Shown here in pieces: positions 3,701 through 51,700 of a DNA stretch of 64,000 nt (its first letter is position 1; each line of letters opens with the position of its first letter). Origin of the DNA: Chiloscyllium plagiosum (taxonomy: Eukaryota); assembly GCF_004010195.1 (NCBI RefSeq), contig NC_057719.1, positions 45,240,423-45,304,422 of the forward strand, given 5' to 3'. A program made the position numbers and the translations under genes. The notes beneath the pieces are model-generated. The model saw only the letters and a list, made by a program, of their open reading frames with translations, ran no database searches and was not told the DNA's origin.

Positions 3701-6700
3701 GGGTTTTCTGATCATCATTAGACTGTTAATTCCAGATTTTGTATTGAGTTCAGAGTCTACTGTCTGGGAAGTCGAATCTCCAGAACATTCTCTGGATCCC
3801 TGGGATGAAAAATGTAGCAATAATACCATAGGCAATCACTTCCCCTGTAGGAATATACATTTCCAATTCCATTCCAGGAAGAAATCTTTTGTGGAAGAAT
3901 ACAGTTGTAGAGGATGATTTGACTGGAGTATAATAAGAGAAAACTGATGTTTGATTACTTTATGCAGAGATTCAAAAGTTATTGAAACACAGGATTAACA
4001 TGCAGGGGCAGCACATGTTTCGGAAGGTCAATACTGTATTGCACTTTATTAGAATGTCGCACGAAAGAAATCATGCTTATATAAAGCAAACAAAAAGCAG
4101 TATTCACTGGTTTGGTAGCATCTGTGGAGAGAAAGCAGAGTTAATGTTTTGAATCCTGCCACCCTTTGGTGATATTTATGCTGATAACAGGGGGTGATGT
4201 GAAGAAGGGGTGAGCAGATAGACGGGAATGGAGTCTATAGAGAGACAAAGGAAAGAGACAGAGAGAGAAGAGAGAGTGAGAGAGAGAGAGAGAGAGAAAA
4301 GAGAGATTTTCGAGGCCAATTTCTTAAAATTCTGTAGATAATGCAGTAGCCTTGATGTTGGACGTGATTTGTGGATAGTCGGCCAGAGAAGAGAAGCCAG
4401 ACAGGTGATAGGTGGCATTTATGCTGATGGCAGGGAGTGGTGGTGGAGGGGAAAAGGAGTGAGCGGAAGGGTGATAGAAGTTGAAACATTAACTCGTTCT
4501 CTGTCCCAAGATACTGCCACACCTGCTGAGTTTCTCCAGCAATTCCTGTTAATGTTTGTTTCGAACCTCCAGCATTATTCATTTTAGTTTTATATAACAT
4601 TTTGATGGGGCCACTATTGAAATTATGTTTAGAGTTTTACTCTCCTTTACCACGAAGGATATATTTGCTTTGAAGGTGGTGCAATGAAGGTTCTCTGTAT
4701 GAATTTCTGCAATTAGGGAGCTGTCCTTTGAGAGAAATTAAAATTGTTTAGGAGTTTAGAATAATGAGGTGATCTTGTTGAGCCATACAAAGTTTTAAAA
4801 AAAAATCTTCACAGGTAAATGTTAAAGACTATATCCTGAGACTTGGTAAGTCAGTATTTAGAATCATAGCTGAAAATGTGTTGCTGGAAAAGCGCAGCAG
4901 GTCAGGCAGCATCCAAGAAGCAGGAGAATCGACGTTTAGGCATTAGCCCCTTCTTCAGGAATGAGGAAAGTGTGCCAAGCAGGCTAAGATAAAAGGTAGG
5001 GAGGAGGGACTTGGGGGAGGGGCGTTGGAAATGCGATAGGTGGAAGGAGGTTAAGGTGAGAGGGAGGAAGAGATGTTTCGTCACCCTATTAGGTAACATC
5101 TTCAGTGGGCCTCAGGCGAAGCATTGCTGAAAATGACATCACCAACCCAAAGAAGCCCAAGAATATAAATAGAAAGCAGAAAATGAACCTTCCAGCTCAG
5201 TGAGCAAACCTACGTCCACTTACACGGTACCCAGGAAAGACCTAAAGACAGAGCTAAGATGAGCAAGGAGGGGACATAAGAAGTTGTTGATGGATAGGAT
5301 CAGGGAAAACCCTAAAGCTTTCTATTGGTATATAAGGGATAAAACAATGACTAGAATAAGATTAGGGCCAGTCAAGGACAGTAGTAAGAAGTTGTACGTG
5401 GATTCAGAGGAGAAAGGGGAAGCACTAATTGAATATTTTTCGTCAGTACTCACACTGGAAAAAGACAATGTTGTCGAGGAGAATACTGAGAAACAGGCTA
5501 CTAGACAAGATAGGATTGACGTTCACAAGGAGGAGGTATCAGAAATTCTGGAAAGTGTGAAAATAGATAAATCCCCTTGGCTGGATGGGATTTATCCTAG
5601 GATTCTCTGGGAAGCCAGGGAGGAGATTGCCGAGCCTTTGACTTTGATCATGATGTAAAAACAATGAATGCAGATGCTGGAAACCAGATTCTGGATTAGT
5701 GGTGCTGGAAGAGCACAGCAGTTCAGGCAGCATCCAAGGAGCTTCGAAATCGACGTTTTGGGCAAAAGCCCTTCATGAAAAGCCCTTTCTGATGAATGGC
5801 TTTTGCCCGAAACGTCGATTTCGAAGCTCCTTGGATGCTGCCTGAACTGCTGTGCTCTTCCAGCACCACTAATCCAGAATCTGGTTTCCAGCATCTGCAT
5901 TCATTGTTTTTACATCATGATCAAAGTCAAAGGCTCGGCAATCTCCTCCCTGGCTTCCCAGAGAATCCTAGGATAAATCCCATCCAGCCAAGGGGATTTA
6001 TCTATTTTCACACTTTCCAGAATTTCTGATACCTCCTCCTTGTGAACGTCAATCCTATCTTGTCTAGTAGCCTGTTTCTCAGTATTCTCCTCGACAACAT
6101 TGTCTTTTTCCAGTGTGAGTACTGACGAAAAATATTCAATTAGTGCTTCCCCTTTCTCCTCTGAATCCACGTACAACTTCTTACTACTGTCCTTGACTGG
6201 CCCTAATCTTATTCTAAGCGAAAATCATGGAGGAGGTGGAGGGTGTGGGTGGTGTCCTGAACGTATGTGGAGAGTTATTGGACTAAGGGGGCCAGGACTG
6301 TGTCGAGGTATGCAGAGATGAGTTCGGTGGGGCAGGAGCAGGCTGAGACAATGGGTCGGCCGGGGCAGTCAGGTTTGTGGATTTTGGGCAGGAGGTAGAA
6401 ACAGGCAGTGCGGGGTTGTGGGACTATGAGGTTGGAGGCGGTGGATGGGAGATCCCCTGAGGTGATGAGGTTATGGATGGTCTGAGAGATGATGGTTTGG
6501 CGGTGGGAGGTGGGGTCATGGTCAAGGGGGAAGTAGAAGGAGGTGTTTAGCCTCAGTGGTGTAAAGATCGGTGCGCCAAACTTAGAATCATAGCAGCAGG
6601 TTAAGGAATTGGATACTAACAAGTGAGATGAGAAGAAAGTTCTTCACTCACAGAGATACTTATCTTCAGAATTCCCTTCTCCACAGGGCTGTGAATGCCC

Positions 6701-9700
6701 ACTCATGGATATGTTCAAGGTTGAAATCAATAGAATTTTGTGTGTTGTGAAACAAGAAATTAGGGTAAAGGGCACGAAAATGGAGTTAATGTAGCAATAC
6801 CATATAACCTTCTTCTGCTACAATTCCTTATGTTCATATGTTCTTACAATTGTTATAGTAAGCAGTTAAAAAGTTATTTTAAATAGGTAATTTCTCTCTC
6901 TAAGCATTCAGCATTTAATTATCTGATTATTGCCGAAAAGAGAGATGTGTTGCCAAAGCTTCTCATCAAGACAAATACAAGAATGCCAAAAGTTCAAATG
7001 ATCGTTACAAGAGAGAAAAAGTTGTGAATTGGTTGGCAGGTTTATTCTGTTTTCCCCATCACAATACCTTGTAATCAACAGACTAATAAAAGCTCACCAA
7101 CATCCTGGGTAATTGATAAAAGTGGAACATTTCAACATATTCCTTCTTGTTTACAAAGAATGCGTTACTATGAACGTAACATGGGTAACTGCATGTTTAC
7201 GTATCTTATTTGTTACCGTCACTACATTTAGACTCAGGATTGTTCAGCAAGCACTGCCCAATCATGGAATCTCATCTAATGGTACACATTTCATCTTAAG
7301 TTTTGCAGTTGTGTGGTGGATCAATATGATCTATCCTTTGCCAATTATGAACAACTGAAGGAACACGTTTGATTCAATCAGACCAATCAGTAGGACATAC
7401 GGCCCACATAGCTGACATCATATGGGCAATAATATTATAAGATACAAAAACAAAAATTGCTGGAAAAGCTCAGCAAGTCTGGCAGCATCTGTGAAGAGAA
7501 ATCAAAGTTAATGTTTCACGTCTGGTGACCCTTTTTCAGAACAAGATGTTTTTCAACTGTGAGCTAGACAAAACCTTTTTTCTACTGATAGTAGCACACT
7601 GAAATACCATTGATATAACCAGTGCATAGCAGCAGCATGAAACAACTTCCGTAAACTATTGTTCAAATTTTTAAGTTACTTTGAAATCAAGGAAAATTGA
7701 AGCAGACTGGGCACTTTTTGGGTCCAGAGACTTTCACCATTTTGTAAGATTTTGCCTCAAGCCATACACACTTTGGAAGTAAACAAGAGATTACTATCTT
7801 TGAGGACATACTTCTTAAACTACATCCCTAAATCCTGAAAAATCTGACCAGACATCTCTAATATTTGCAATCTTGTATGTCACTGCTACTAAAATGCATT
7901 ATAAGCCAGGGCTCAATTTCTACCCGGAAAAACATTCTGCACCCTAGCATCAGGAAATACCACACCATGGGGGACACATGGTGACAGTTATTGAAATATC
8001 TGCCCTGACTATCGAATTTCCTATATAACGCCATTTAAGATCAAAGATGGACTCTCTTTCAGTTATATAATTTTTTTCTTATTTTTAAACTATTCATAAT
8101 GATGCCGGAGCATGGTGACAGTCGAAGCTTTTCACTGTTTTTTTTCCCTTCATTACAAGTGACAATAATTAGTTCAATTCAATTCAATTTAATGCCCGTC
8201 AAGCTCAGGAATCCTAACCTTCAGCTAAAGCACCTGAAGACACTTCCTACTTTCAGTAACAAATTAAAGACTCCTTGAACATATCATATTTTTGGTGCCA
8301 TATTGGTCATTTTGCTTCATTAAAAAAAACACTGACTGACCTGGCTGTCCACACTGTGGTTGACCAGTTCCAGGGGGTGTCCTCGTCCCAGGAATTTCCT
8401 GTCCCCTTTCATCCACACACCAGCAATGGCCTGTACTGCCATGGCATTGCAGGGGCTTGAAGTTCCCCTCCTCATCACACTCAGGGATATAGGCACCAAC
8501 CAGAGCTGGAGATCCACGCAAGTTCAGCTCTGCTTGCAGTCTCTCTCGCTGCTGTTCACAAACAGTCTTTGTGCGTTCAATGGGTTCTAATCAAACAAAA
8601 CTGATTTGGAATAATTGCAAAGTATTTGAAAATTGACATTATAACAAATTTCCTCTGCACACCGTATGTCATCAGCTTCTTTATAGGAATGAAATTATAC
8701 CTGATCCAATTTATATTAATATAATTCACGTGCCTTAACCATAATTATCAACCCAAATCATTTCCACCAGGGATTCACCTCTCCATAGAAGAAATCAGAA
8801 TTACAATAAGTGTTAATGTTTAATGAGGTTTATAGTAGAGAAAGCCCTCCATTTTGTGTCTGTTCTTTTATGGCCACTGTTATGAGTAACTGTTCTGGCA
8901 CTACTTATCTTGTACAGGCATTCTTCCTGATTTGGAATTATAAAGAATGTTCTTTCAAAGAATGCGATTGTGAGAGTTTTTTTGGAACATAATAGGAGAG
9001 AACATTGATGCCAGATTATTTAATACAAAAAGATTTAGAAGTCCTTGTAGATGATTCATCAGGAGTTAATGTGCAGGGACAGCACATTTTTTGGAAGTTC
9101 AGTGGTCAGTTACTTATTATTAGATCATTGGAGAAGAGAACAGAAAATCACACTTTCATAAGGCTTTGGTGAAATCACAGTTGAAATATTGTCTAAAGTT
9201 TTACTCTCATATGAAATTGGAGCAAAAATAGACCATTTAAAGAGATCATGCCTGATCTCCTTCTTCTTTTTCCTGCACAAACCCTAATAATCCTTGATAT
9301 GTGTAGGCAAAAATGAGGACTGCAGTTTGTGGAGATTAGAGTCAAGAGTGTGGTGCTGGAAAAGCACAGCACATCAGGCAGCATCTAAGGAGCAGGAGAA
9401 TCAAAAATATGGAACACTTCACAAATTTGCGTGTCATCTTTGTTCAGGAGCCATGCTAATCTTCTCTGTTTCGTTCCAATTTTAATGTGTAGTTCAATCA
9501 ATCAGTTTTGAACAAATTTAATGACTGAGCCTCCACTGCTCTCTGGAATACAGAATTCCAAAATTTCTTTTAATTGAAGAAATTACTCATCTCAATCTTA
9601 AACTGTCTACCCCTTATTTTGGCAAATTGTCCCTCGGTTCTAGTTCCCCTTTCAAGGTAAATATGGTTCCTGCATCTATGATGTCAAACGCATCAAGAAT

Positions 9701-30700: not shown

Positions 30701-33700
30701 GAACAATTTTTTTTGCTGGGGTCAAGGATTTTGGGTGAATTTTCACCTGACCAGGTGGACAGGATATGAGTGGGTTTGCCACTGGGCAGTTTGTTAAAAG
30801 GACATCAGTTGTCATTGTGTTGGGAAGCCAGCAGCATTAGACCAGTTTCAACTTCCAGCTCCAATCTCCATGTCTATTGCAGAGGAGAATCCTCCATAGG
30901 ACAGGTAGGTTGCCAATTTCAATATGGAGGCAGGTGGCATTGAAGGTCAGTTCAGACAAATGTGAAGTGATTCATTTTGGTAGGAAGAACACAGAGGAAA
31001 AAAGTACAAAATAAAGACTGTAACTGTAAATGGAGTGCAGGATCAGAGCTTTATATATAGATAAATTATTGAAGGCAGCAGGGCAGACCAAGCGAGCAAT
31101 TACTAAAGCAGTATTAACTGTAAAAAAAACTGGAAAATTGTACTAATAAATAATAGTTCTCTTGGGCTTTGTTAATAGGGAGATAGGATTAAGAGCAAGG
31201 AAGTTACATTGAACTTGTGTAAGGCATTAGCTCCACTTCTGTTAAGAGTATTGTGCCCAGTTCTGGACTTTGAATTTTCAGAAAGGTGCTAAGAAATTAG
31301 AGAATGTGCAGAAAAGAGATGCAAAAATGAACAAGGAACTTCAGTTATGATGATAGATTGGAGAAGCTGGAAATGTGTTGCTGGAAAAGCGCAGCAGGTC
31401 AGGCAGCATCCAGGGAACAGGAGAATCGACGTTTCGGGCATAAGCCCTTCTTCAGGAAGATTGGAGAAGCTACAATTGTTTTCCTTCAAGAAAATAAGGT
31501 GGAGAAGAGATTTAGTGTGCTTTTCAAAATTAGGAGTGTTCTGGAAAAAGCAGATAGGAATAAACTGTTTTTCCACTTCTGAAAGCATTGAGCAAGAGAG
31601 GGCACAGATTTAAAGGTATTAGTAAAAGAAGCAAAAAAGCTATAGGAGGAGAGATTTTCTCATACAGCAAGTGTTAGGATTGAAGTCCATTGCTTAACAT
31701 CGTGGTTGAGGTAGCTTCAATCGAGGTTTTCAGAAAGGAGTTAGGCTGTTATCTGAAAAAGATGATGTGCAGGGTTACGGGAAGAAGGCAAGAGAATGGG
31801 ACAGATTAGTGGCTCATTCAAAAGGCTGGTGTAGACATGGACCAAATGGCCTTCTACTGTGTTGTAAAAATTTTATCAATTTGTGATAGCATACCATATG
31901 TGGAAAACATTTTATATTCAAAGGTAAGTGTGGAGAAAATTTTAAACTAGTGGCAATGATTTTATGTCATAGGATTAGTGAATGATAAAAATGATGAAAT
32001 AGAAAGAGAAGGATTAGAACACAAACAACAAAAATAATTTCTTTTCAATTCTTTTCATCACCATTAATTCTCTTTTTAATTTTAATCCTTTGCATTCGCC
32101 TGTTAGCTCACCATATGTGCTTGTGAATCTTTGAGACATTGACACAACTGTCTAAAGTTAACAATCTGAATAGACGGTGAATTAATTTGTTGAGAACGAG
32201 TGAAACAGGAATAGAAAAGAGAGATCAGGGGAAATGCAAGGTGTATGTTTATTATGAGCTGGTTGTCAAAAGGGGAGAATGATTGGATATGTGGTGGCAG
32301 AGGACAAACATCAGGAAAGGCAATCAAACCACATCAGCGTAACTAACAATGGTCAGGTATTTTATCCCAGTCATATTTAGAGCCCAAAGTCAAAGAACAG
32401 ATACAAGCATTTATAAACAGAGGAAATAATTACTCCTTAAATCACCTCTTTCAATGATGATCAGTTTTTCACATATACATTACAGAATAGAATCACTTTA
32501 AACTCTTTGAACTCATAATATCCTACAATATCAGATCTTTCATGCATTTTAAACCACTGACTGACCTGGCAGCCCACAGCGAGGTCGAGCACTTCCAGGT
32601 GGTGTCCGAGTTCCCGGAATTTCCTGTCCGTTTTCATATACACACCAGCAGTGGCCTGAACTGCTGTGGCACTGCACAGATCTGAACTTCCCCTCTTCAT
32701 CACACTCAGGGATATGGATTCCAACAAGAGCTTGATTTCCACGCAAGCTCATTTCCATTTGCAGTCTCTCTCGATGTTGCTCACAAGCAGTTTTTGAACG
32801 TTCATTAATTTCTAATCAAACATAAAGAAACTGGTTTTGAAAGAATTACAAATTAACAAGAGCAAGTCTCTCAAATTGAGTCTATTGGGTCTTTTGATAC
32901 CTTGTTGCTGTCAACAGTCAGTTCATAAGAAAGACAACATCCCCAAGTCAATGTGTTTTAAATACAATTCATTTCACATTTCATGGTTAATTTATATCAA
33001 ATTGATCCAGATTCTATCACAACTGTATCCATTAAAATTTAATATTTTCATAGAGTCATAAAACATAGAAACAGGCTCTTCAGCCAACCAAAAAAACACC
33101 AAACTACACTAATCTTGTTTACCTGCACGTGGTTCATAGCCTCCCCTGCCCTGTCATTTTAAATACTCATAGATGCTTCTTAAATGTTGCAAGAGTACTT
33201 GCTTCCAACACCCTCTCAGAATGTTCCATATATCTACCACCTTCTGGGTGAAAATGTTTTTTCTTAAATCTCTTCTAAACCACTTGCTTCTCATCTTCAA
33301 TTTGTGCCCTCTGGTCTTAGACACATCTGCCAAAGAGATTCTCACAATCTCCTCTGTCTACACCTTTCAACTTTGTCTACCTCAGTTAGAACCCCCTCAG
33401 CCTCCTCTGCTCCAAGGAAAACAAATCCAGTTGATCCAGGAAACCCAGTCTCTCCTCATAACTGAGGACTTCCATCCCAGGCAACATCCAGGTGAATCTT
33501 CTTTGCAGTCTCTCCAGTGCAGTCACATCCTTCCAATAGAACTGCACATGGAATCCATCTCTAGCCTAACCAAGTTTAATAAAGTTGTAAAAAGACGTTC
33601 TTGCTCCTATGTTCTATGCCCTAGCTAATAAAGGCAAGCAATCCCCTATACCTTCTTCACTACCCTGTCTATCTATGCTGATACTTCCTGGAATTAAGGG

Positions 33701-45700: not shown

Positions 45701-48700
45701 TCACAAGCAGTCTTTGTGCGTGATACAGGTTCTGAAAAAGAAAAACTTCTTTGTCAGCTGTGTTGCATGAATTACAGTGCTGCAAACTTCAACAAGATGC
45801 AAGGTATCAATGCAACCCCAGCATCCCAAAACAATTGCCTCCCACACTTCCCCAACACCCAGCCCACCAGTCCCAGTAAGAGCTTAGTTAGCCTGTCTTA
45901 GAATTAAGGTAACTGCAATATCTTCCAGTTAGAGAAAGGAATTGTCCAGGATTCACAGCCTGTTGCAGCACTGATTGTCCTGCCAACAGCATTGGAAATG
46001 AGCAGAACCTCCATTAGTAAGTGGGACGGCTGGTCAAGTTAAATCATCTGATGGCCTGTGTAATTATGAACAGCCGAGGGGTCTATTCATTGCACTGAGA
46101 TGGCTCGGAAGTCACCAACCCTGCCATTTGTCATCGTGGTCAAAGGTCTGGGCACAATACTGAAACAGTGTTTAGACAGGTATTGATTCCCTGCCTGCTA
46201 TTAGAATCATTTTGCCTGTCCAAGACAAGGAATTTGAACTTAACTACTGCTATCTTCTCCTCAGCTGTCTCGCTTCAATCTTTAGATCAGAAAACCATCA
46301 ACTTTGACCTTCCTTCCATCACTTAGCTACGCTTTCTGTGCCCCTTGAGCAAGCTGCCATTACGCTGTCAATCTAATCTCCATTAATATAGACCTGTCAC
46401 TCTGCCTTTGCTGAACTACAATCCATCATCTTGACCCTCTCTTTATCACCCATGACCTGTTTGTGGCAACCCTCAACTCTCACAGGGTCACTGTTGACCT
46501 GTCTGTAATCATCCTTCATTTCCCTTCTCTCATGTTTGACCTGCATCAGTAGAGATTGACCTTCCTTCAATCAGCCACATCTCTCTCTCTGAGCCCCATG
46601 ATCTTCCTTCGGCATCAACATGACCCAATCTCCCCTCCATGGACAGCCATGCCCCATTCTCCCAACACATTGTGGGGTGATGCGCTTTGGAAAAAGTAAC
46701 AAGACAAGGCGTACTCAATGAATGGCAGGACACGAGCAAGTTTAGAGGAACAGAGGGATGTTGGGTTGCTTGTCCACAGATCCTTGAAGGCAACAACATA
46801 AATTATAGGGTTGTCAAGGCCGCATATGTGACACTTACCTTTATTAGTCATAGCACAGATTATAAGAGCGGGGGGTTATGTTAGAGCTGTACAGGACTTT
46901 TGGTCACGCCACAGCTGGAGTACTGTGTGCAGTTCTGGTCATTTCGCTAGGAAGGATGTGACTGCACTGGAAGGGTAGCAGAGAACATTGAACAGGCAGA
47001 GAAGAGGGGACCTAATTGAGGTGTATGAACAAATTGAAGTGTCAATAACAATGAGGGCACATCTCTAAAAGTCGAAAAGTCTGGCACTGGAAAAGCACAG
47101 CAGGTCAAGCAGCATCCGAAGAGCAAGAGAATCGACGTTTCTGATGAAAGGACTTATGCCCAAAATGTTGACTCTCCTGCTCCTTGGATGCTGCCTGATC
47201 TGCTGTGCTTTTCCAGCATGTTTCAACTCACACTTTTAAGAAGAAGGCAGGCGGTTTAAAGGAGATTTCAGAAAATAAAATCACCCAGATAGTGGTGGGA
47301 AACTGGAATGCATTGCCTAGCAAGATAGATGTTTCAGGAAACTGTACAACTTTTAAAAGTACTCGAATGAGCACTTGAAATGTCATAACATTTAAATCTA
47401 TTGGCCAAGTGCTAGAAAGTGGGACTAGTGTATACTTTGAGTAGTATTTTTGTCCTGGCAGACCCGACGGGTTTGTGCTATATGTTTCAATTATTCTCAG
47501 ACAGTCAACATCTGCACTCAATGCAATAGCTCAGGTTCTTCTTCCTGGTCCAAAAAGGTTTCTCTATTTACAAATGCAGCTCCTACTTACTCTTAATCCT
47601 TCAGGAAGATCACTCTGCCTGCTGTCTACCAAGACTTGTTCACTGGTGACAAATCACTAAGGTTCAATTCAATTTGGCAACCAAAGTGTTTTAATGAGTA
47701 TGCATTACACTTGAATGCATTAAAGGTTGGTCTGCACTGGTTGCTTTCAGGCAACACAATCTGTATTTAATCCAATATTAATTTACTTCCTGCCACAGAT
47801 GAGCTGAGGTGGCAGCCATCTTGGATGGACTGTACACTGATGTGGATTTGGTTAGCGTCTGGTGGTGGAGTGGAGTGCAGTGTCCCTAACTCAGAGTCAG
47901 AGGCCTGGGTTCAAGCCCCACCTGTTCCAGATGTGTGTCATAACAGCACTGAAAAGGTTGATGTAAAAGAAAACCTGATATTGATTGTCCACGAAAGGCA
48001 AATAATATGTTCTGTATCACGACTGTGATACATCCTCGAAGCAGGAAGTTACAATAGTTTAATGAGACGTGGGGGCAGGAGTTAAAGTTTGAATGGTTAG
48101 TTTACTGAAAGCACTAAATTGTTAAAATAACTGAGCTATTAATATCATCAGCTGAGACTGTCTGTATGGAAAACTAAGAAATAGGGCTGGATTTTAACTC
48201 CTGGCCAAAAGCATGGCAGAGTGAATGGAGTGCTGAGATAGGAGTGATGGTAGGGAGACTTGACCAATTTTAACAGCCAAGCCTTGTTAGGATATTGTTT
48301 GTAAGCACCCAGGGTCACCTCTTTTTAAAACAAGACTGCACTTCAAATTAAATAGGAGAGAATGAGGACTGCAGATGCTGAAGACCAGTGTTGAAGAGTG
48401 TGGTGCTGGAAAAGCACAGCCATTCAGGCAACATCCGAGGAGCAGGAGAATCAATGTTTTGAGCATAAGGACTTCATCAGGAATGATGAAGGGCTTATGC
48501 TTGAAACATCAATTTTCCTGCCCCTGAGAAGCTGCCTGACTGGCTGGGCTTTTCCAGTACCACACACTTTAACTCTGCACTACAAATTAACCCTGGACTC
48601 CCACATAGTTAACAGAGCCAAAATAATATTAAATCTGTTAGTTAAACCTCCTACCTTCTTCTTAAAAGTATGATTGCAGAAGATAATTCTCCTGTTTTTC

Positions 48701-51700
48701 CCCGTCCTTCAAATCAAATCCTAAAATAGACACAAAGTAACTTGGAAATAAGATTTGATTTTGGATTCCTACCTGGCTCGATTGGTCTACACTGGGTACC
48801 ATCTCCTTCATAACCAGGGTTACATTGACAGACGTACGAGCCAGGGGTGTCATAACAAGTTGCATGTGAATGACATAAACCCTCAGTACATTGGTCAACA
48901 GCTGCAAGAAAATAACACAGGCTGACTTTAGTCAAGTTTGCATCGCTCAAATTTCCTCCCTGCTTTTATTACTCTCCTAAATAGGTAGTTTCTAAAAGAG
49001 TAGAGTTCCATCATTGGAAGCATAAGCACTGCAATCCCTTCACAAAAAATTGTTCTTTATGTTGGAGCTTGTTAACAAACAGATACACACACACACGCAC
49101 ATATTCACAGTGGTTAATGGATGGTGCAGTGTGAGCCCTGACTGACTCACACTTCACTAGGTGAAAGTAAGGACTGTAGATGCTGGAGATCAGAGTCGAA
49201 GAGTGTGGTGCTGGAAAAGCACAGCCCGTCAGGCAGCATCCAAAGAGCAGGAGAGTTGACGTTTCAAGCATAAGCCCTTCATCAGGAATGATTCCTGATA
49301 AAGAGCTTATGCTCAAAACATCGACTCTCCTGCTCCTGGGATGCTGCTGACCGGCTGTGCTTTTCCAGCACCACACTCTTCGACTCACACTTCACTGGTC
49401 AGAGACAATTGCAACACTGAGTGCTACCTAAATTGACATTCTTCTGGTTCCAGCAAAGACAGGGAAACAAGCTACAACTTTCCTCTAGGTAGGACTGAAG
49501 CCCATTTCATGTTGTGTACTTAACTACAGTGCTATGGAAAATAAATAGGCTTGTGTAATCAGGCACTAACGGATATTATACAAAATACTTTAATGTTGGA
49601 AGGTTCATGAGCCCTTCTCACTGGGCCTGCATTATCAGTTCTTTTATCTGTGGTGGAGTTTGCTTTGTTAAAGACTGTAATGTGTGGAAACATTGCAACA
49701 TATCATTAACATTTTAATCAATATAGTATTGCATGTAATGTAATATTCCTAGCTACTGATGCCATCCTCTTTTCAGCAACTATCTTGACGGTGAACCGGG
49801 CTGACTACAATTTTCATGTCTTTGGTGCCAAAGTTGAGTTTCTGACATACAATCACTAAAACTGTCTATTTCCACCTCTATAATATTGCATAACTCCACC
49901 CTTACCTCAGCTCATCTGCTGCTGTAGTCTTCATTCATGTACATTACTTTTAGAAGACTAACCTTCCATATTCATTCCTCCATAAACTTGAACCGATCTA
50001 AAACTCTGCAGCTGGTATCCTACACTGGATTCTGGTCCAGCGACATCTCAATTTGAAGATCATCATCCTTGTTTCTAAATCCTGTCATTGTCTCATTCTG
50101 CCTACCTCACACCCCTCCTCCAGCTCCAAAGCCCTATGTGAAATCTACATTCAACAAATGTTGGCCTTTGACCATCCCCAATTTTAATTTCTCCATTATT
50201 GATGGTCATGCCTTCAGTTGCTCAGGCTCTATACTCTGGAATTTCTATTTTTATACTGCTTTTTCCTCTTTTAAGATGCTCTTCTGAGGCTGCTTTTCTT
50301 GACCAAGTTTGTATCCACTTTCACTTGTACTAGCAGCAACATCTATCTCATGAGATGGTGGTTTGCATCATCATGGTCAACTCTGTGTTAAGTATTGCTC
50401 AGGCTGCCTCAGAAGCCAACTGGACCATGGGCATTTGACATTTGCTGCAAAGGAAGGTATCAGGCTGAGAAGGTGCACAATTCATTGACTTATGGTTTTC
50501 CCAGGGTCTCACCAACCAGTTGATCATTTCATTTCTGCTCATCACATTCAATGTTCTTACAGACAGAAGCCTTCAGGAGTCATAGCTATCAGTAACTGTC
50601 TCCCATTAATGTCCACTATCTTCATGTTTCACTTAGTTTTCTTGTCACAAAGGTATGGACATCGAAGTGTCATGACCCAATGGCCAGTCACCATACAGAA
50701 AGTCTTCATTACATAGCTATCATCCATGATAGGATTGTGACTAAGTCAAAGCCATTGGCTCAGCAAATGTGTGTGCTGATGAGATTAATGAGCTTCAGGA
50801 GCTGAATATATGACCTTGTTTATCTCCACTCGCCTCATTTTGTGCAGCTTGGTATCAAATTCTGCTTTACAGGTGAAGTGTCTTAAGACATCGCATTACA
50901 TTAAAGATGCTATATGAATGCAAATTGTTTTTGTTTTTTTAAAATTTCTGCCAGAGGTTTTCCTAATTCAGCCATTCAATTATTCAATACAACATAAAAC
51001 ATAGAACCATACAGCACAGCTAATATATAAATGAAATAATCACAAATCTATTTTTGCCACCAGGAAATTGTCTGATTTCATTTGTCACCTCAAAACTTTA
51101 TTTTGTCAAAAATCTTTGGGCTAATTCTGTGAACACAATGTGTTGGCCAATGAATCAAGGCCAAAGTGCTATATTTTTTAACTCTGAACCATGTTCCCTT
51201 AGAATGGAACCTCCTCTCTGAGGAATACAGAATTAATCCTACTGTTCTAGTTTATGACTTACCATTTGCTGATGTAGATGTGAGTTAATTGCATTAGAAC
51301 TCAGGGTTGATTCTCTTCAGCACTCCTTTAGCCAAATCTTTACTCATCCATTGTAAGTCTAGTATTGTTCTTGATTGTGTGAGCTTTTGGATGCAAGAGA
51401 CTCTGGATGCAAGAGACACTCCAGTACATGCTGTCCTTATTCAAAGCTGAGTTGGAGGAACTGGACCTGGTGTGGAAATGCTCCAGGAGAGACTACAAGA
51501 AAGGAGAGGGTGGCATGGTGGCTCAGTGGTTAGCACTGCTGCCTCACAGTGCCAGAGACCCAGGTTCAATTCCTGCCTCGGGCGACAGTCTGTGTGGAGA
51601 TGTGCAGGTCAGGGTGGATTGACCGTGCTAAATTGCCCATAGTGTTAGGTGAAGGGGTACACGTAGGGGAATGGGTCTCGGTGGGTTGTTCTTCAGAGGG

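Follow-up and report, generated by a model that had tools for sequence, protein, structure and literature searches.

Penelope-like elements (PLEs) of metazoans carry minimal hammerhead ribozymes which, according to the available part of Cervera and De la Pena (2014, PMC4209133), cleave poorly in vitro and for which in vivo evidence was absent in 2014; those authors propose cleavage of the RNA and its ligation to circles. For Anolis, the accessible sections of PMC11167929 describe a PLE reverse transcriptase that initiates at internal RNA sites 3' of the hammerhead, with extension of both strands; no RNA-seq reads were seen there at the cut, and cleavage was dispensable in vitro. An inverted second arm is typical of PLE insertions (PMC8557442, in the portion available). 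Chimeras of U6 snRNA with retroelements form the other relevant system: mature U6 has five terminal U and a 2',3'-cyclic phosphate, U6atac also ends in a cyclic phosphate, and RtcB, which needs both ends, joins such U6 to RNA with a 5'-OH (PMC6789731, available text). Hammerhead-cut retrozyme RNA is likewise ligated by RtcB in vitro, as stated in the available part of PMC7229834.

The window, by which we mean the whole 64,000-nucleotide stretch analysed, lies on C10 of the 3.56-Gb assembly that was searched, and it holds at 9299..9492 an insertion in which U6 runs directly into the tail of a PLE (Table 1).

Table 1. The U6/PLE insertion of the window, an ordinary reference copy, and the loci with the same joint in the genome
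Feature	Position	Strand
Target-site duplication, U6-side copy, 8 bp	9485..9492	.
5'-truncated U6 snRNA retrocopy, gene positions 26 to end, five T	9403..9484	-
Junction: U6 3' end / base +1 (position 1.1) of the predicted hammerhead 3' product	9402..9403	-
PLE terminal-repeat tail, +1 to about +96 (96 bases)	9307..9402	-
Target-site duplication, tail-side copy; first three bases overlap the usual tail end	9299..9306	.
Reference, not in the insertion: intact minimal hammerhead core C3-H17 of an ordinary copy, same family	31428..31455	-
Reference: tail of the ordinary copy, first base same as 9402	31374..31427	-
U6/PLE joints, window's family, seven loci, five tail variants	window, C10:28.34M, C31:9.507M, C7:109.2M, C11:5.56M, C3:3.08M, C1:38.73M	
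U6/PLE joints, three other families, one locus each	C52879, C16:2.826M, C1:10.705M	

That a U6 with five T is joined to a PLE tail in a 178-bp unit with an 8-bp target-site duplication was claimed in the earlier note, and the coordinates as well as the identical flanking 8-mers agree with it, one duplication enclosing both parts as in a single insertion. The structure stands with two corrections: the U6 is 5'-truncated, and the 3' boundary of the insertion is uncertain by three bases, because the first three bases of the downstream duplication are those that follow the tail in the copies at 49257, 48452 and 11085 and thus match its usual continuation. Since an unrelated 8-mer match is present within 430 bases, the duplication counts only by its placement at both boundaries. 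The U6 part carries 7 mismatches in 77 aligned bases and scores 90.4 bits with Rfam RF00026, and an Rfam extension of it to 9513 was rejected as flank. The tail ends near the downstream reverse-transcription start of ordinary copies. The window has 16 other tail matches, most with a full or partial hammerhead directly upstream of the same first base; in the intact copy core C3 lies at 31455 and the predicted cut falls between 31428 and 31427, so that the earlier reading of this copy as a hammerhead was borne out, the junction base of the insertion being the one that adjoins its H17. The insertion itself is a dead retrocopy without a function of its own, and its value is that of a record of the cut. 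Two-armed palindromic PLE stubs were also seen in the window at 1-350, 5650-5915, 47070-47220, 48360-48570 and 49160-49390, and the copy at 285, a 162-bp duplicate, begins at +1.

Comparison with longer copies identified the window tail as a PLE terminal repeat. In L177 a GIY-YIG domain (E 8e-5, over the cut-off) precedes hammerhead and tail, L169 has an RT-like frame (RVT_1 E 3e-5, under the cut-off) ahead of the same 3' region, hammerhead and tail, and the tail also lies 3' of a GIY-YIG domain and hammerhead in L050 and L054, while in L082 and L151-L155 it continues into the start of a reading frame. The layout of an endonuclease-positive PLE, with RT, C-terminal GIY-YIG and terminal repeat, was found in this way for the window's family; L177 and L178 have N over the RT core, and one short endonuclease piece gave no Pfam match.

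Upstream of the tails we found the core of a minimal PLE hammerhead, namely C3-A9, one bulged base, G10.1-C11.1, G12-A14, a palindromic 15.1-16.1 and H17. Core tables were made from 86, 7 and 6 unselected copies for three families; the table of the fourth, represented by L063, was shifted by a sister subfamily, and its context was read from native genome copies. Stem I is short, with 2-3 pairs, its pair 2.1:1.1 being C:G in the window's family and A:U in two others, and of the monomer only stem II forms (z -0.23). Some intact hammerheads, mostly of one subfamily, carry a single additional base, G or A, at the scissile bond. Such bases make up 41 of the 100 one-base insertions listed out of 237 (by eye), against 3-9 of the 100 at other single positions, and about 35 of them fall in one tail subfamily, for which reason we set them aside as support; they probably derive from one founder copy. 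At C85561:824-896 a run of T stands at the cut site between the 5' half of a hammerhead and a tail, and perfect palindromic insertions at C2:89553928 and C2:99656496 are centred on the predicted cut with both arms ending at +1.

Across the genome, joints of U6 with PLE tails at the predicted cut are recurrent: ten loci in four PLE families with different hammerheads have U6 at +1. A scan of the U6 end against the tail core in 31 registers gave seven matches at six loci, all in the +1 register, and added the locus C1:38.73M; a similar scan for two other families placed both of its matches at the predicted cut, the family of L063 resting on one locus. Under a uniform null with the window copy left out, the chance of five further loci falling in one pre-set register of 31 is (1/31)^5 = 3.5e-8. 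Exactly on the predicted scissile bond lie 12 of the 14 junction copies, the other two being mutated or one base off, and in 12 of 14 five T are followed by +1 with no base added or lost, while the genes of U6 end in four T in all four examined. Native contexts, read from 8,516 and 508 copies (100 listed each) and a dozen for the third family, show in the three other families the hammerhead core, a stem III replaced by the palindrome, and H17 directly before the position of the U6 joint. The expectation that the junctions sit at the predicted cleavage site and are not scattered was thereby supported with hammerheads that differ in sequence.

Since the ribozyme register alone is common to the four families, we infer that the hammerhead very probably cleaves in vivo in the germ line. 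A protein endoribonuclease cutting at this bond, with RTCB then joining U6, is what has been proposed as the source of the 5'-OH in U6/L1 chimeras (PMC6789731, available part), and such cuts probably gave the two U6 joints in the interior of a PLE, L050 and L054. As the origin of the +1 joints it is very improbable, because what the families have in common is the hammerhead register and not the dinucleotide at the cut.

The census of U6 3' ends returned 109 matches. Among the 100 listed, a PLE tail joined at +1 accounts for 10 rows, from 9 loci (by eye), 2 are the joints inside PLE coding sequence, about 48 join tRNA-derived SINE or tRNA-like heads (by eye), and the remainder are U6 genes, LINE joints or unclassified. 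Position +1 takes 10 of the 12 U6-PLE joint loci, with the other two in the coding region. The genome also holds non-L1 classes of U6 chimera with SINE and LINE partners. Very often the partner of U6 and U6atac is one of two or three tRNA-derived SINE families, the joint being at the SINE 5' end or up to about 12 bases from it (e.g. L036, L043, L044, L053, L056-L061, L182-L215). In L039, C39:9526191, L073, L070 and L206 they are joined to what we take to be tRNA-like sequences with short leaders and a 28S rRNA-like piece, and in L052, L042, L047, L072 and CR1-like census rows U6 is joined at variable positions in presumably LINE-like sequence. A locally repeated unit, full-length U6 followed by the same CA-rich sequence, makes up L037, L040, L045 and L051 (C21:7.86M, C89242).

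The +1 chimeras have the marks of PLE integration. Their U6 starts range over positions 2 to 87, U6 being 5'-truncated at most of them, and the U6 mismatches run from 0 to 7, which marks the chimeras as independent events of differing age. U6 and tail are enclosed together by duplications of 13-14 bp at L003, L004, L062, L063 and L066; the duplication at L022 has 8 exact bases, or 14 with one mismatch, and that at L082 about 12 with an indel (both by eye), while around L002 and L064 no clear duplication of U6 and tail was found. Seven of the ten loci are two-armed, with an inverted second arm, and the arm ends differ by about 35-48 bases; the inverted 5'-truncated arm and the optional tail of 30-40 bp that belong to the definition of endonuclease-positive PLEs (PMC8557442) were both found. 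From the tail ends, inverted arms and duplications, the PLE enzyme appears to have made the insertions. The L003 insertion was observed to hold three U6 pieces, an inverted arm plus a tandem of U6 9-102 and 26-end.

These data bear on a coincidence at the DNA level, in which PLE stubs starting at +1 would have inserted 3' of U6 copies already present, or a single U6-headed master would have spread. About 5 of 90 unselected tails do begin at +1, and L200 shows a PLE stub inserted in a U6atac copy. The duplications, however, enclose U6 and tail together and the inverted arms contain U6; eight different tail variants or families with differing U6 starts are involved; and the stub of L200 keeps its hammerhead. 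Such a coincidence is already largely refuted, and we consider it scarcely credible. The L200 locus is of interest in itself, as an intact hammerhead-bearing PLE stub in the middle of a U6atac copy.

Ordinary copies served as a control. Of 90 tails in 664 kb of unselected DNA, 81 retain the 3' core of the hammerhead and about 5 truly start at +1; since most tails keep the hammerhead, ordinary copies would come from uncleaved or rejoined RNA, as in vitro. Between -21 and -36 start 62 of 95 ordinary-copy anchors and 7 extend beyond this range, an outer limit that depends in part on the reference sequences used; these -21 to -36 ends are presumed to be RNA 5' ends. In other families, copies starting at +1 number about 10 of 100 listed (by eye) and 2 of 100 listed, and ordinary +1 starts speak but weakly for cleavage, as many can arise by stem I microhomology.

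The same microhomology underlies an account without cleavage, in which the folded hammerhead would stall the reverse transcriptase, or stem I would make +1 a breakpoint, and synthesis would switch to U6. Many ordinary inverted arms join at +1 via two complementary bases of stem I (by eye), which shows that a breakpoint at +1 does not require cleavage, and uncleaved RNA is the main substrate in vitro (PMC11167929, accessible part). Yet U6 lacks such homology to +1, a stall would be expected at +3 to +4, where stem I has its downstream foot, and not at the scissile bond in four families, and 81 of the 90 unselected tails were copied straight through the hammerhead. We regard this account as improbable, and return to in vivo cleavage as the first step.

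How U6 came to be attached is less certain. On the evidence of the sequences, RTCB-type ligation before reverse transcription is the moderately probable route, and we lean to it because of the donor specificity, the seamless joints, the doubled joints and the absence of such joints at upstream ends. The course that we would favour, somewhat above even, for the process as a whole has three steps. A germ-line PLE transcript would self-cleave at its minimal hammerhead and leave a 5'-OH at +1; RTCB or a like ligase would join mature U6, with its five U and 2',3'-cyclic phosphate, to this end; and the PLE protein, whose binding and start sites would lie downstream of the cut, would nick the target and begin reverse transcription within the tail, some 60 or 100 bases from its start, cross the joint and end variably in U6. 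An RTCB gene is present in the genome.

Ligation has to be weighed against a template jump, the earlier note having named both without choosing. In a jump the hammerhead also cuts in vivo but the PLE reverse transcriptase runs off the cut 5' end and continues on the 3' end of U6 with no RNA chimera, a course that we hold to be possible though rather unlikely. End-to-end jumping has reportedly been described for R2 by Bibillo and Eickbush in 2004. A jump may possibly pair one added A with the last U, which would leave the same seamless joint, so that seamlessness fits a jump too. In keeping with jumping, U6 joints occur at SINE and pre-tRNA 5' ends, and PLE-body pieces are joined to a second tail at +1 (L082, L156, L098, C2:127544518; the joint near 1265 in L082, of which L149 is the reverse complement, and near 2015 on the minus strand in L156) with one or two extra A in three of the four, which looks like a template jump; one more such case was found. 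These joints with extra A count against ligation, as does the U6/SINE class, whose ends should be phosphorylated and therefore rejected by RtcB: either the SINE RNAs acquire a 5'-OH or this genome has seen frequent jumps onto U6. According to the available part of Doucet et al. (2015, PMC4476161), chimeras of this kind are read as template switches.

A jump, by contrast, would not account for the lack of a clear U6 joint at the far commoner upstream ends of ordinary copies. The search for U6 ends upstream of the PLE hammerhead gave five matches that share only 11-12 bases with U6, none of them convincing. Two of the five precede a PLE (p 0.048 and 0.12); L162 (p 0.048) was rejected for want of a convincing U6 body and L166 (p 0.004) because no PLE lies behind it. 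Both arms cross the same U6 joint in four of the seven two-armed insertions, which also stands against a jump; the second arm could, however, be fold-back synthesis from one cDNA, and the doubled joints would then be no proof of a covalent RNA.

The choice of donor likewise argues against a jump, since the heads found are the two cyclic-phosphate snRNAs and not U5, Y RNA or tRNA. With about 48 candidates scored each, the genome gave 36 matches for U6atac, 5 for U5 and 1 for Y RNA, whose model may miss diverged copies; a tRNA-CCA head at tail +1 gave one match, which is not a PLE tail; and 90 tails that follow four T yielded three recognisable U6 heads and no other recognisable small-RNA head (by eye). 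About 22 of 35 U6atac loci join at or near SINE or pre-tRNA-like 5' ends (by eye), and none of the 35 joins a PLE at +1, which again weighs against ligation. Among the indexed runs recorded as RNA, none contained the PLE stretch. In the RNA data, a single-cell poly(A) raw run placed 1867 reads on the PLE stretch, on both strands and with no pile of starts or ends, and a second run placed none; reads containing U6 were filtered out in the RNA search, and the two contig sets are of a kind that cannot show RNA ends.

Having leaned to ligation, we also considered whether cleavage and RTCB ligation are a regular step of PLE replication, with cut monomers rejoined or circularised and the U6 chimeras being mis-ligations. 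If true, this would explain the partial-tandem terminal repeats, and same-family joins would leave no trace; against it, cross-family joints of hammerhead and tail gave no match for the one family pair searched and most copies fit uncleaved templates. We think it doubtful.

The ten loci bear on the in vivo activity of the minimal hammerheads in animal PLEs. That ten germ-line insertions from four families carry a foreign RNA exactly where the ribozyme is predicted to cut is base-precise, if indirect, evidence of cleavage, and it also indicates that the enzyme of the element can copy the cut RNA. The loci equally lend themselves to testing the RtcB model of U6 chimeras, the source of the 5'-OH being predictable here, and we suggest that U6 junctions may serve as a general map of ribozyme cuts in any genome.

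Among known systems, the loci share with U6/retroelement chimeras the 3' part of U6 in sense orientation and 4-6 T, directly 5' of the 3' end of a retroelement. As far as the available text of Moldovan et al. (2019, PMC6789731) goes, U6/L1 chimeras are alike in the sense U6 at the 5' side, the short T run, the 3' part of a retroelement and the single insertion. Their partner, however, is a variably truncated L1 and their U6 mostly full length, whereas here the partner is a PLE with a fixed joint and U6 is usually 5'-truncated; their nuclease is not named in that text, and here it is most likely the ribozyme of the element itself. The strict features of U6/L1 chimeras are absent. Closer in partner and form are the U6/L2, U6/RTE and U6/SINE chimeras of platypus and Anolis (Doucet et al. 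2015, PMC4476161), which have non-L1 partners, 5'-truncated U6 and short duplications; the available text has neither 'Penelope' nor 'shark' and no ribozyme-defined joint, and the text of PMC11838501 has neither 'Penelope' nor 'ribozyme', while what was consulted of PMC7245038 and PMC4494074 had no bearing on the matter. In the literature searched we found no U6/PLE chimera and no ribozyme-defined U6 joint, the supplements of PMC4209133, PMC11167929 and PMC4476161, most subscription papers and Repbase reports lying outside that search. The view that ribozyme-defined U6/PLE chimeras had no earlier description holds to this extent, U6 chimeras themselves being known. An snRNA-headed SINE (Kojima 2015) would have a uniform structure spread from a master, but here tails and U6 starts differ.

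Non-LTR retrozymes (Cervera and de la Pena 2020, PMC7229834, available part) are alike in that a 5'-OH made by a hammerhead is joined by RtcB to a cyclic phosphate, but they have canonical hammerheads, tandem repeats and intramolecular circles, whereas here a host snRNA is the donor and the loci are dispersed single insertions in which the 5' half of the hammerhead is absent. The metazoan PLE hammerheads described in the accessible part of Cervera and De la Pena (2014, PMC4209133) agree with ours in the core, the bulged base, G10.1-C11.1, the stem III palindrome, the short stem I and the placement in terminal repeats; its authors note the lack of in vivo evidence, while here the predicted cut is recorded in the genome. 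With the Poseidon PLE of Anolis in vitro (Frangieh et al. 2024, PMC11167929, available part), our copies share two internal reverse-transcription starts downstream of the hammerhead, extension of both strands and derivation of most copies from uncleaved RNA; in contrast to that system, the chimeras described here imply that cleaved RNA is sometimes a template in vivo.
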